Shown: positions 52,001 to 58,000 of the stretch, piece after piece | Position numbering within the stretch: the first letter of the stretch is position 1 | Layout of the letters: the number at the start of each line of letters is the position of its first letter | Origin: an uncultured Pseudomonadota bacterium | GTDB taxonomy: Bacteria > Pseudomonadota > Alphaproteobacteria > UBA9219 | DNA length: 64,000 nucleotides | Reading direction: 5' to 3' | NCBI GenBank assembly: GCA_903824505.1 | Contig: CAIJXG010000081.1 | Location: 40,044 to 104,043, forward strand | Made by a program: the position numbers

Positions 52001-55000
52001 TTTTTGGAAACGCGTGATGGATGACAGTGCTATGCGCGAAGGCGATTTGAGCCACGCTCAAGATCTTATGCGCCGCCACCATACGTTGCGCGATGCTATG
52101 GATCGCGCCCGCCATTATGGCGCGATTGCTAAAGACGCGCTGGGACTCTTTTCGGATAACCCCGTGAAACAGGCTTTTCTGGATATCGTGGATTTCACCA
52201 TCGCGCGAGAATTTTAACATCTGTCTTTTATGGGATGACACAACGTGGAACGACTCCCTAATCTTATTGGTCTTGATCTTGCCGAGCTGACCGCGATCCT
52301 AGAGGCGCAAGGCTTTGAGCGATTCCGCGCGACGCAGATTTGGTCGTGGCTTTATGTACGCGGGGCGCAAGATTTTGCTGAAATGACCTCTTTGTCCAAA
52401 CTGGCCCGCGCTAAGCTGGCGGATCATTTCACGCTTGAGCGTCCAACGATCACCACGCACCAAAAGTCCGAAGACGGGACTCAGAAATGGCTTTTAAAAA
52501 TGCCAGATGGGCAGGAAGTCGAAAGCGTCCATATTCCCGAGGAAGATCGCGGCGCTTTGTGCGTCTCAAGCCAAGTCGGCTGCACGCTGACCTGTCGGTT
52601 CTGCCATACAGGCACGCAGCGGTTGGTGCGCAATCTGAGCGCGGCCGAGATTGTGGGCCAAGTGCTGATCGCGCGGGATGCCCTGAAGGAATGGGCGCTG
52701 CCCGATGCCTCAGCCACGCCACGCCTTTTGACGAATATCGTGTTGATGGGCATGGGCGAGCCTTTGTATAATTACGACAATGTCGCGAAGGCCCTGCGGA
52801 TCATCATGCACAGTGACGGCATCGCGATTGGCAAACGGCGGATTACGCTCTCGACCTCGGGCGTTGTGCCGATGATCGAGCGATGCGGTTCCGAATTGGA
52901 TGTCAATTTAGCGATCAGCCTGCATGCCGTAACGGACGAATTGCGTGACCAGATCGTGCCGCTGAATCGCAAATACCCAATTGCCGAGCTTTTGAAGGCC
53001 TGTCGCACCTATCCGGGGGTTAGCAACACGCGGCGCATTACATTCGAATATATTATGCTGAAAGGCGTGAATGACAGTCCGGCCGATGCGCGGCAATTGG
53101 TGCGTTTGTTACGGGGGATTCCGGCGAAGATCAATCTGATCCCGTTCAACCCGTGGCCGGGCGCGGCCTTTGACTGTCCGGACTGGAGCGTGATCGAGAA
53201 TTTTGGCGATATTGTAAACGCCGCAGGCTATGCCAGCCCTATCCGCACACCGCGCGGCCGCGACATTATGGCCGCCTGTGGACAATTGAAATCCGCTAGT
53301 CTGAAACTCTCGGCCACCGAACGCGCCGAAATCGATCGGTTGATTGCGGAAAAAGACCAAGCGCAGGGGCTTGAGATATCCCCTATTTCTTCTCGGAAAA
53401 ATACAGGCTCAGGCGATTGACGATCTGTTCGCTCGCTTCATGGAGCGTATGATCATAGGCGCTTTCACGGGCAGCGACCGTTCCGTACATTTGATCCAGC
53501 CGATTGTAGCTGGCCACGCTGTGCGCCATGCCGGTCAGAATCTTTTTCCCCGCCTGATCTGTCAATGTGTAATCCACCGACAGATTGAGCATGGATCGGG
53601 TAGCGGTCGCGTTGGCCAGAAGACCGAGCACTTCTTCATTCGCGTGAATCTCTATCTTTAGATGATACAAAGGCAGCGCAGGTCTGTTTTTGCCATAGAT
53701 CCGGTCAATCAGGGCGTTGCGCAGAATCTGTCCGTTTCGCTCTGGAATCGTGTCGATGGAAATGGCGTTCAGTTCTACCGCGACAGGATCTTGATCGTCC
53801 CGTGCCCCATAGACGGAATGAAACCCGCAACCTGTTAAGAAAACACAGACGGCGAGAAGGCAGAAGGGTTTGAGATATTTCATAAACATTGAAGCTTCGG
53901 GGGCTAGGGCAACAATCGGGATAAATCGTCAAGGCCGCACGTTTCAAACACAGGTCTAAACCCATGCACAATACGTCTGTTTCCGTTTTCAAAGATAACC
54001 GTCAGGTGAAACCATGCTTGCGGCAAGGAGCCACTTGAGAATCTTGGCTCAACGGTAAAGGCCATGTTTTCTTCAATCCGCTGAGTCTCGACTCCATTGA
54101 CGAATTGCCTTCCGTAACGAAGCGTATGTGTGATTTCCGCAAAGTTTTTTGCTCTCGCAAGCGCCTCATGGGCTGTATCGCCTGCCCAAGACAGGGGAAT
54201 GCTGTGGCCTATATTTGTCGCGGTTGGATCGCTGGGGCTTGCAATATCGTTTCGCAGCCCTTGGCTGGCCCCATACTCTATGCCGAATTGATAGAGTTCG
54301 TTGAAGCCCATGCCCACTCTGGCATTTTGGGCGATATGCAAGCTGGTTTGCAAGACATTCACGCAATGGGCGCGAATATCTTGAGATGGTCCTGCATAGA
54401 GAGTCAACCCAAAATCACCAATCAGGTTTGTTGCTTTGTGAACCGGAGAGGCATAAGCGGCCAGAATATCCTCTGAATCATAGATCAAATCCTGACGGGG
54501 CCACATAGGTTCAGGACGAAAAGAGGATTCGCATATCCTTTTATAACGATCTGCTTTTTTGCCAAAGAGTGTCACCATGCCGTGAGGGGGTGGCGTGTAC
54601 CACCCGTCTTCATAAAGATCGGGAGAGCCGCGCAAAGCACCGAGCCACGCCTCGGCCAGATCACATTCAGAAACAGGGCGCGGCCAAGCTCCCAGCGCTT
54701 TTGCAAAGGCCGTGCCTGTTTGATTCTTGATTTTTTCAACAAGCTTTAACATGCTTATCCGCCTCTTTGATCTTTTAACATTTCCTCTGGGCTTTTCGTT
54801 CTTGAACTAAATTACCCTCCTTTCGTCTAAAGCCAATAAGATTCTTCGCCCCCGATATCCCTTAGAAAGCAGGCTCTAACCCTTTGACGTTTTACGGATG
54901 ACCCATGCCGCTGCCAATCCTTATGCCTGCTCTTTCGCCCACCATGACGGAAGGAAATCTTGCTAAATGGCCAGCCTTGAAACTTTACGAGTCTTAAGGG

Positions 55001-58000
55001 GTTCAAATAAAAACAGACAGCGGCGGAATTTCTGAAAGACATGAAAAAAACCAAAGGGCGGACAGACACCCAACACCGTGGCAGGGGCATTCGACTGTTC
55101 TTCCGTTGTAGTGCGAGACGTTACAGGTTGACCTTTTTGCTCGACAACACGCGCTCTGCGGGGCACAAAAGGCTAACTTATGGCGTGGTGTGGTATACAG
55201 CGCTGGATTCTGTGTTTTCAGAATTTTGGGATGAAAATAAAAAAACAGATAGAAAGAACCAAATTTTGTGTTACAGTAAGGCTTGTCTGGATAGTAAGAC
55301 ATGCCCACGGATGGGGGAAGCCGTCCAAAAGCGAGAGGATATCTGTGATGACAACCCAAACACAAACACAAACCGCGCCCATTTTTGTCTTGAGTGTCAA
55401 CCGGGGGTCACTTTGGCGTTAAAGATGGGTCGCCTTTTGCAATTAAGTATGATTTGAATGAGTTAGCGGCTTTTAGAGCATCTGCTGGTATAATCCTCAA
55501 AGTTTCCGGTTCTCAATCAGGCTTCTCTTGCTGCCAACGACCTCAAAAGTTAGCTTCTCAGAAATTTTACGCGGCTGAGATTGATGCCCCTGGGTCTCCC
55601 TTGAACGGTCAAATATTGGTTAACCCGTTCGGAGAAGTCTCTTGCAGCGTAATAAAGGTGGTCGATTTGAATCTTTACAAAAGGGGGGACGAAGAAACTC
55701 CTCGACCTGTTTTGCTGTCCGAGCTCCCGAAAATCCAGCTCACTTTTACATGAAAGGGATGCGCTATGACCAAATCACCCTCCTTTCGTCTAAAGCCAAT
55801 AAGATTCTTTTCATCGCCCTCGATATCCCTTAGAAAGCAGGCTCTAACCTTTTGACGTTTTATGGATGCCCCATGCCGCTGCCAATCCTTATGCCTGCTC
55901 TTTCGCCCACTATGACGGAAGGAAATCTTGCTAAATGGCACAAGAAAGAAGGGGATTTTGTGAAGCCCGGCCAAGTCATTGCCGAAATTGAAACCGACAA
56001 AGCGACGATGGAAGTCGAAGCGGTGGAGGAAGGCAGGATCATCAAAATTTTGATCCCTGCCAACACGCAAGGAGTCAAGGTCAACACGCCCATCGCCCTT
56101 TTAGCAGAGGAGGGAGAGGTGGTCGATGCCGCCGCTCTCGCTGCGATGATTTCTGTTCCTTCCGCGCCTTTAACCCTTACCGCGCCTGTGGCAGCGCCTG
56201 CGGCCCAACAGGCTGTTTCGGCATCTTCTGTGGCTCCCGCTTCAGGGGGCCGGATTTTGGCAAGTCCGCTGGCCAAGCGTTTGGCGGAACAAAGGGGGCT
56301 GAGTCTGCGTGCCATTCGCGGCACAGGCCCCTATGGCCGCATTGTCAAAGCCGATGTTTTGGGCGCCCCTGCGACAAGTTCGGCACCTTCTGCGCCCCCC
56401 CAAACGGGCGGTTTGGACGTTCAAGATTACGCGACCAAACTTGGCATGGGTTATGTGCTTCAACCCAACAGCAGCGTGCGCAAAGTCATCGCCAAGCGGC
56501 TGACGGAATCTAAACAGAGGGTGCCGCATTTCTACCTATCGGTGGATGTGGAGCTGGATGCTTTGTTAGAGGCACGCAAGCAGATCAACGAGCTGAAAGG
56601 CACGAAAATCTCGGTGAATGATTTTGTCATCCGCGCGACGGCTTTGGCGCTGAAGAAAATTCCCGCCGCCAATGTTTCTTGGACAGACAGCGCGATTTTG
56701 CTTTACACGGATGTCGATGTTTCGGTCGCGGTCGCCACCCCGGGCGGGCTGATCACGCCGATCATCAAGAAAGCCGACACCAAGTCTTTAGAGCAAATCT
56801 CGGCCGAGATGAAAGACCTTGCCGCGCGCGCCCGCGAGGGCAAATTGCGGCCCGAGGAGTTTCAGGGCGGCGGCTTCTCGATCTCGAATCTCGGTATGTT
56901 CGGGGTCAAGAGCTTTTCGGCTATCATCAACCCGCCTCAAAGCTGTATTCTGGCCGTCGGCGCGGGCGAGCAACGCGCGGTCGTGAAAGACGGCAAACTG
57001 GCGATTGCGACCGTGATGACCTGCACGTTGTCGGTCGATCATCGTGCAGTGGATGGCGCTGTTGGGGCGGAATTTCTCGCGGCCTTCAAGCCGTTGATCG
57101 AAAAGCCCTATGCGCTTTTTGTCTAATCACTCCACCGTCACGCTTTTGGCTAGATTGCGCGGCTGGTCGACATCCGTGCCTTTGGCAACGGCCGTGTAGT
57201 AGGCCAAAAGCTGAATGGGAAGGGCGTAGAGGATCGGCAAGACGGCAGGGTCTGCCTCTGGAACCGTCAGAGCGCGGAAACATTTTGTGCCGATATGGGC
57301 AAGCCCTTTTTTATCCGAGATCAGGATCACCTTCCCGCCTCGCGCCGCAACTTCTTGAATGTTGGAGGCCGTTTTGTCATAAAGCGCATCGCTGGGGGCA
57401 AGAAAAACGGCAGGCGTGCTTTCGTCGATCAAAGCGATGGGGCCGTGTTTCAGCTCTCCCGCCGCATAGCCTTCCGCATGGATGTAAGAGATTTCCTTGA
57501 GTTTGATTGCGCCCTCAAGCGCAATCGGATAAAGAAGCCCGCGCCCCATATAAAAGACATCCCGCGCCTCTGCCATATAATGGGCGAGTTCTTGAACATG
57601 GTGTTCATCACGCAGAATCGTGTTCATATGGGCGGGGACTTCGCGCAGCGCATTCAGAATTTCCTGCGCGCGCTTGGGAGGCAAAACCTTTCGCGCAAGG
57701 CCTATGCTGACCGCCAGACACAGTAAAACGGTCAGTTGCGTTGTAAAAGCCTTGGTTGAGGCGACGCTCACTTCAGGCCCCGCTAGCGTCGGAAGAACGA
57801 CATCCGCAAGGCGCGCCATGGCGCTTTGCGGCACATTCACAATTGAGAGAATTTTTTGCCCTTGCGCCTTGGCGTAGTGCAGGGCGGCAAGCGTGTCTGC
57901 CGTCTCACCCGATTGCGAGACCGCAATCGTCACGCCGCCTTCGGGCATCGGCGCTTCGCGGTAACGGAACTCCGAACCGATATCAACTTCAGTAGGCATG

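Follow-up and report, generated by a model that had tools for sequence, protein, structure and literature searches.

Within a 64-kb window from the genome of an uncultured alphaproteobacterium (contig CAIJXG010000081.1; by window we mean the whole 64,000-nucleotide stretch), we found that pdhC, the gene for the E2 component of pyruvate dehydrogenase (PDH), has its leader and first 22 codons present twice in direct orientation, and that the two copies flank a gene-less spacer of about 0.8 kb. We give about an even chance to the explanation that this locus is an insertion-duplication caused by incoming DNA of any kind. The order repeat, spacer, diverged repeat, with both repeats ending sharply inside the gene, fits the exact product of one crossover, and the 7% divergence between the copies is most simply explained by an incoming copy that was not identical to the resident one, since such a copy accounts for the divergence without long persistence of recombinogenic repeats.

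The first-pass annotation of this DNA had described direct repeats of roughly 157 bp that were about 93% identical and that duplicated the pdhC leader and first 23 codons. The repeats are present, with limits slightly wider than had been claimed (166 and 171 nucleotides (nt)), and the duplication of the leader and gene start is clear, although the number of shared codons is 22 rather than 23. The copies align with 92.98% identity across 171 columns (blastn E = 8e-70), with a period of 963-968 nt; in the alignment, their right (gene-internal) edge is sharp and their left edge is fuzzy. The window contains exactly two occurrences of a 32-mer taken from the repeat, as against zero expected from shuffles, and neither a third copy of the repeat, even a degenerate one, nor a second copy of the spacer was found anywhere in the 64 kb. 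Seven substitutions (54808, 54813, 54852, 54882, 54895, 54901, 54943), six of which are C/T transitions, and one 5-nt indel (55810-55814) separate the two copies. A single substitution, the synonymous change ACC/ACT, falls within the 66 coding nt, as compared with six substitutions and the indel within the 99 leader nt. This pattern, consisting mostly of transitions and with less coding than leader divergence, fits a homolog that evolved elsewhere under coding constraint.

Consistent with the earlier description, the upstream copy encodes the same 22 residues as the downstream copy and then, after the residues PALKLYES, reaches a stop codon (54995-54997). When the PdhC and PdhB proteins of relatives were compared with the stub region, the match was confined to residues 1-22 (tblastn). 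The downstream copy, in turn, is the real start of pdhC, as had been proposed: it opens an intact reading frame of 417 codons, the product of which matches Pfam families PF00364, PF02817 and PF00198 and scores 532.7 bits against TIGR01349 (cutoff 445), so that, by its domains and its equivalog score, the intact downstream gene is a PDH E2 gene.

As the source is a metagenome-assembled genome, and as a copy difference of 7% is within the reach of strain variants, strain variants might in principle have been serialised into a false repeat; we consider such an assembly artefact very improbable. Two ENA assemblies from different samples, ERZ1426852 (106-kb contig) and ERZ1426530 (69-kb contig), which we compared by exact protein look-ups, have the same gene order and share the same 1120-nt gap without a called gene. 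Furthermore, two Logan contigs (run ERR4195047) are identical to window positions 51047-54843 and 55870-59164. The first of these ends one k-mer before a 33-nt run common to both copies (54814-54846), while the second starts at the left edge of a common 41-nt run (55870-55910) and has its other end inside an unrelated dispersed repeat. The ends at 54843 and 55870 are where a k=31 graph should break at a two-copy repeat if both left contexts of the common runs are present in the reads, which makes an artefact unlikely. Likewise, the junctions at 54971/54972 and 55768/55769 need reads that strain mixing would not create.

The duplicated segment also coincides with a break in gene order. The closest E2 proteins are 75-76% identical among 5.8 billion sequences and 73% identical among 185,579 GTDB species genomes, and the nearest relatives are all uncultured Alphaproteobacteria. 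The gene order in these relatives is eno-ftsB-pdhA-x-pdhB-pdhC-(x)-lpd, with pdhB directly upstream of pdhC in almost all of the approximately 80 relative loci that have enough flanking sequence. None of pdhA, pdhB, lpd and eno was found in the 64-kb window, which bears out the earlier remark that the lack of pdhA and pdhB upstream of pdhC is unusual, an unlinked pdhC being rare among relatives. Since the relatives keep pdhA-pdhB-pdhC together, while the pdhC of the window stands alone, the duplicated segment lies on a synteny breakpoint at the 5' end of pdhC. Here pdhC has a divergent peptidase-M24-like gene on one side and a convergent glmS on the other. The ftsB gene, which in relatives precedes pdhA, lies downstream of pdhC at a distance of 6 kb (63208-63531), and the genes after it, on the opposite strand, are lpxA-like and fabZ-like. 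Two of the related loci are exceptions: in one (L020, 2296-4607), two opposite-strand membrane-protein-like genes lie between pdhB and pdhC without a duplication, and in the other (L012, upstream of 6001), no pdhB was found within 6 kb of pdhC.

The gene-free gap as a whole, extending from 54753 to 55872 (1120 nt), is the longest found in the window, at twice the length of the next longest measured. It is also the stretch of lowest GC content in the 64 kb, whether 800-nt or 1120-nt stretches are compared (0.45 versus a mean of 0.546 with a standard deviation of 0.028, i.e., about 3.4 standard deviations below the mean), a status that we counted for the incoming-DNA explanation. Within it, the spacer, which would be 806 nt long under the narrower repeat limits of the first-pass annotation, has a GC content of 46.2% as compared with 54.6% for the window, in agreement with the earlier observation that it is visibly poorer in GC. 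The short unique stretch to the left of the upstream copy has no similarity in alignment to the corresponding positions 55716-55768. The open reading frames (ORFs) of the spacer, of 138 and 119 codons with others on the minus strand, had been characterized as low-complexity; they are not, though they carry no coding signal, with codon scores from -0.26 to +0.06 bits/codon as compared with a mean of 0.26 for real genes. The source assemblies contain no called gene in the spacer. The coordinates of the features at this locus are listed in Table 1.

Table 1. Positions in the window, strand and description of the features at the pdhC locus
Feature	Position	Strand	Description
Upstream repeat copy	54806-54971	+	166 nt: ~99 nt pdhC leader, ATG at 54905, 22 codons
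Downstream repeat copy	55769-55939	+	171 nt: leader and true pdhC start (ATG at 55873); extra TTCAT at 55810-55814
Truncated pdhC' stub	54905-54997	+	30 codons (22 shared plus PALKLYES), then TAA
Orphan spacer	54972-55768	.	797 nt, 46.2% GC, non-coding
Intact pdhC (PDH E2)	55873-57126	+	417 aa; lipoyl, E3-binding and catalytic domains
Unique stretch	54753-54805	.	53 nt, from M24-like start codon to upstream copy; not duplicated
Candidate extended -10 motif TGGTATAAT	55486-55494	+	Perfect match, inside the spacer, facing pdhC
Peptidase-M24-like gene	53904-54752	-	282 aa, divergent from pdhC; weak Pfam PF00557 match

To the origin of the spacer, similarity searches gave no lead. Its six-frame fragments matched no Pfam, NCBIfam or PHROGs family, and a search of 5.8 billion proteins with the six-frame concatenate as query produced no match at E <= 10. 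With blastx, too, the spacer had no match, whether to any ORF of the window or to those of 87 related loci, which rules out a decayed but recognizable pdhB, pdhC, integrase, toxin-antitoxin or neighbouring gene as the source. Only the 119-codon ORF returned matches, 12 in a HMMER search of 1.84 billion representatives (best E = 1.5e-12), all of which were unrelated, highly repetitive surface proteins (e.g., one with 20 DUF11 repeats); we judged these to be repeat-inflated and rejected them because about 30 bits per unit are summed over the repeats and because different matches use different families. Neither an integrase nor a transposase was found in the spacer, as the first-pass annotation had claimed, and no remnant of an integrase was detected anywhere in the 64 kb with Pfam, NCBIfam and PHROGs. 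That annotation had also suggested searching the insert against phage and plasmid sequences and looking elsewhere for an intact element that shares the att-like segment. With blastn, none of 50,697 phage records or 72,556 plasmid records matched the spacer, and no element sharing the segment was found in the phage, plasmid, IMG/VR or JGI collections: exact repeat and spacer words (18- to 28-mers) gave nothing in IMG/VR and the JGI metagenomes, or isolated chance 18-23-mers without extension. These database negatives may reflect collections that lack this lineage.

Nor does the locus resemble the more familiar kinds of small insertion or intergenic element. An insertion sequence, transposon or miniature inverted-repeat transposable element (MITE) was rejected given the 166-nt duplication, the lack of terminal inverted repeats in the spacer and the lack of another copy in the window, and a toxin-antitoxin cassette given that no recognizable toxin/antitoxin pair was found with Pfam, NCBIfam or PHROGs. 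With no Rfam family in the region and folding energies of the spacer no better than those of shuffles (z +0.57 to +0.98), we also rejected a cis-regulatory RNA, a riboswitch and a small RNA; no tRNA is present that might have served as a target. A simple tandem duplication would have made the spacer a copy of an adjoining sequence, and it is excluded: the spacer matches neither 54009-54805, nor pdhC from codon 23 onwards, nor the rest of the window. Tandem or internal periodicity in the spacer is limited to one run, (AACACA)3.5, and to short repeats attributable to chance, and the leader has no similarity to the 3' end of pdhB or to the intergenic DNA of relatives.

We propose that the ancestral order was most likely the M24-like gene on the minus strand, about 150 nt, and pdhC. 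Incoming DNA, from a related lineage or an element, would then have recombined at the pdhC start, carrying its own slightly diverged pdhC leader and 22 codons beside approximately 0.8 kb of other sequence. Two routes may be envisaged: (i) a Campbell-type single crossover of a circle composed of the spacer and one repeat; or (ii) one homologous crossover in pdhC combined with an illegitimate join at codon 22. The product of either would be an intact gene on the downstream copy, with the other copy of the leader and 22 codons stranded upstream as a 30-codon stub. The agent may equally have been an integrase, RecA or illegitimate recombination. The first-pass annotation had likewise suggested that an incoming element brought its own gene start and left the fragment of the host upstream; the layout of stub and intact gene and the 7% divergence support this, while the mobile-element origin that it implied for the spacer is not borne out.

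Homology-facilitated illegitimate recombination and single-crossover insertion-duplication are mainly laboratory-defined mechanisms. In these, a homologous anchor combined with an illegitimate join, or the crossover of a circle, leaves duplicated homology around foreign DNA, as we propose for the pdhC locus.

The spacer, now gene-less and without a sign of mobility, may supply the promoter of pdhC. The sequence TGGTATAAT at 55486, about 380 nt upstream of the pdhC ATG, is a perfect extended -10 motif (TGNTATAAT), of which neither strand of the 64 kb has another. A consensus promoter scan did not pick it up because it has no -35 element, and we regard it, from its sequence and position, as a candidate promoter.

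In a screen of related loci for extra lipoyl-start fragments, we identified one further case, L034, from a lake metagenome-assembled genome (JBILKT010000010.1). Its pdh operon (1432-7281) has the order pdhA, a YefM/YoeB pair, a 169-nt MITE, a 71-codon chimeric ORF, a RelB/YafQ pair, and an intact pdhB. The first 46 codons of the chimeric ORF derive from pdhB; a 9-nt microhomology, CCATGGAAG, marks their fusion to an additional copy of the pdhA end, which comprises the last 30 codons and is 94% identical. The MITE is present in two copies with terminal inverted repeats of about 22 nt, and a 23S-IVS/bAvd-like gene overlaps the pdhC start. As in the window, and in the same gene family and lineage, a stub of a lipoyl-domain start, here together with a 94%-identical gene end, flanks an insertion of about 0.85 kb while the intact genes are kept, and the repeat period is 939 nt as compared with 963-968 nt in the window. 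However, while the L034 cargo is recognizable as toxin-antitoxin pairs and a MITE and has a microhomology junction, that of the window is unrecognizable, and the spacer has no similarity to the L034 toxin-antitoxin ORFs. The insertion-duplications of L034 involve small selfish cassettes and diverged copies. Taken together, the two loci therefore indicate that stub-leaving insertion-duplications recur in these operons.

MITE-like sequences also occur in the window itself. A dispersed repeat of about 120 nt lies at 20964-21083 (+), 38282-38400 (-) and 59140-59237 (+), with a partial copy at 17855-17893; the copies are 89-98% identical, have 9-nt terminal inverted repeats (TATACTCGG...CCGAGTATA), and have TA at both ends. 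The gap between glmS and a GH71 gene, 2 kb downstream of pdhC, holds one of the copies, within which a Logan contig ends. In sequence, this dispersed repeat has no relation to that at pdhC. At its downstream end, pdhC is convergent with glmS at zero spacing, the stop codons abutting at 57126/57127 (57124-57129); thus, there is no room for a terminator between the two genes.

The M24-like gene, which lies 14 nt upstream of lptE in the window, has an atypically low GC content at third codon positions (0.49) and a low codon score, and belongs to a family of only 31 members found in variable contexts. On one Logan contig (L090), a homolog of 66-70% identity follows a P4-type integrase, and the start of the contig reads as a tRNA 3' end (GGTTCGATCCC...CCA), although ARAGORN gives no call on the truncated gene. 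At another locus (L089), a homolog precedes an adjoining TacA antitoxin gene. Since the gene is island cargo elsewhere, its neighbourhood in the window plausibly has a history of island and gene traffic. The gene is outside the repeats, and a larger island that would include it was rejected, as no third copy, even degenerate, was found to delimit one. With the L090 integrase as query, tblastx and tblastn found no integrase remnant in the spacer.

Several points weigh against an insertion-duplication by incoming DNA. An old in situ duplication followed by drift would look alike today, and the bias of the differences toward the leader is not significant (binomial P ~0.16). Any long stretch of non-coding DNA can be expected to be poor in GC; as the spacer does not code, and as the repeats, too, have a GC content of 47-48%, the low value is not diagnostic, and a foreign origin is not proven by GC alone; smaller native intergenic gaps span 38-57% GC, some of them at 38-41%. 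The promoter motif TGGTATAAT is a single after-the-fact match. Finally, no donor or intact element was found in any collection searched, and no empty site was found among the relatives, the nearest E2 proteins being only 73-76% identical.

The first-pass annotation had favored a special case of the incoming-DNA explanation, namely site-specific integration at the 5' end of pdhC. A tyrosine integrase would have targeted this site, attP would have brought a surrogate leader and first codons, and a later deletion would have removed int and the cargo while both attachment (att) sites were kept, leaving a decayed prophage, integrative and conjugative element (ICE) or integrative and mobilizable element (IME), comparable to a cis-mobilizable element (CIME). 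We regard this as unlikely, although parts of the evidence agree with it: direct repeats containing a gene end flank a low-GC segment; a sharp right and a fuzzy left boundary are expected if the crossover core lay at the gene-internal end; and, in L090, a tRNA 3' end and a P4-type integrase precede the homolog of the adjacent M24-like gene. The size and divergence of the repeats resemble those of icd and icdC. According to PMC13626634, citing Hill et al. 1989, when e14 or phage 21 is integrated in E. coli icd, one copy of the gene end completes icd and an icdC fragment is left at the far side, the e14 icd and icdC copies differing by few, mostly conservative changes. Both systems have a duplicated partial copy of the target gene, one completing the gene and the other being a pseudogene fragment beyond the insert. 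In contrast to the 797 gene-less nt found here at a 5' end with its leader and with no integrase, e14 is 15 kb long, has its own integrase and is located at a 3' end. For SXT, insertion at the 5' end of prfC is known (PMC2791158), a conserved housekeeping gene that stays usable, but SXT is about 100 kb long, is defined by Int-SXT and has short, nearly identical att sites, none of which applies at the window locus. Elements flanked by att sites and devoid of an integrase are also a described class: CIMEs are decayed ICEs or IMEs that keep attL and attR and have lost the genes for integration and transfer (PMC5704250). The pdhC locus shares with these the direct repeats, here with leader and 22 codons, and the absence of integration and transfer genes between them. 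However, CIMEs are recognized by kinship to an intact ICE or IME of the same att specificity, and no such relative of the spacer, prophages included, was found. Nor did the family and integrase searches detect a tyrosine or serine recombinase gene beside the att-like site, as there is in e14-icd and SXT-prfC. Together with the lack of any related element, of any protein-level remnant among the 5.8 billion proteins, and of a third repeat copy that would place the M24-like gene in a larger island, this leaves the layout described in the first-pass annotation in place, while site-specificity, with no integrase remnant, related element or protein homolog, is not directly supported. It is doubtful that the spacer is the remnant of an undescribed integrative family that, in an uncultured lineage of Alphaproteobacteria, targets the 5' end of pdhC and brings a surrogate promoter, leader and 22 codons, following the logic of SXT-prfC with homology of the size seen in e14-icd. 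Such a family may have a connection with the island on which, elsewhere, the M24-like gene lies beside a P4-type integrase.

An event without any foreign DNA would also leave two copies around a spacer: the rearrangement that severed pdhC from pdhAB may have duplicated 166 nt and captured filler, after which the copies would have diverged by 7%. The routes might be staggered breaks, template switching, or microhomology-mediated duplication and subsequent replacement. In favor of such an event, synteny breaks at the 5' end of pdhC, the L034 pdh operon has a microhomology junction of this type, and the spacer shows no foreign hallmark beyond its low GC. Yet this requires either two coupled events or that 166-nt direct repeats and 0.8 kb of DNA without a use escaped deletion for a long time; moreover, no other part of the window matches the spacer, and the coding part of the stub is less diverged than the leader, a weak trend that is not expected if the stub alone had drifted. 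On balance, we find an in situ origin improbable, though the earlier argument, that the divergence speaks against slippage, stands for a recent slippage duplication and not for an old one. It is far less probable still that the region is a native, selected regulatory one, in which a long leader, a 30-codon upstream ORF and a duplicated promoter region would control pdhC or the divergent M24-like/lptE operon. The structure is present in all assemblies seen, the start codon and leader of the stub are intact, and the extended -10 motif faces pdhC. However, no Rfam family was found, fold energies are no better than those of shuffles (z +0.95 and +0.98), a consensus scan gave no promoter-like site and one terminator-like site, no more than in shuffles, and no comparable leader was found at the pdhC loci of about 85 relatives.

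An insertion-duplication by incoming DNA thus remains our best explanation. Besides the layout, the divergence pattern and the low GC, we count in its favor the synteny breakpoint, the presence of the structure in independent assemblies, the lack of any adjoining sequence of which the spacer is a copy, the comparable event in L034, and the plausible gene traffic around the M24-like gene. The kind of structure is already known; what we describe is a new instance in an unsampled lineage, and otherwise an ordinary relic of genome rearrangement. For annotation, the 30-codon stub and the 1.1-kb gap should be recorded as a pdhC' pseudogene fragment and a scar, and not as genes. If the integration reading is true, the 5' end of a central-metabolism gene would be a new attachment site in a poorly sampled alphaproteobacterial lineage, and the locus would be an example of incoming DNA replacing the promoter and start of a gene. 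Considered together, the window and L034 suggest that insertion-duplications readily arise in pdh operons that have duplicated lipoyl-domain starts.

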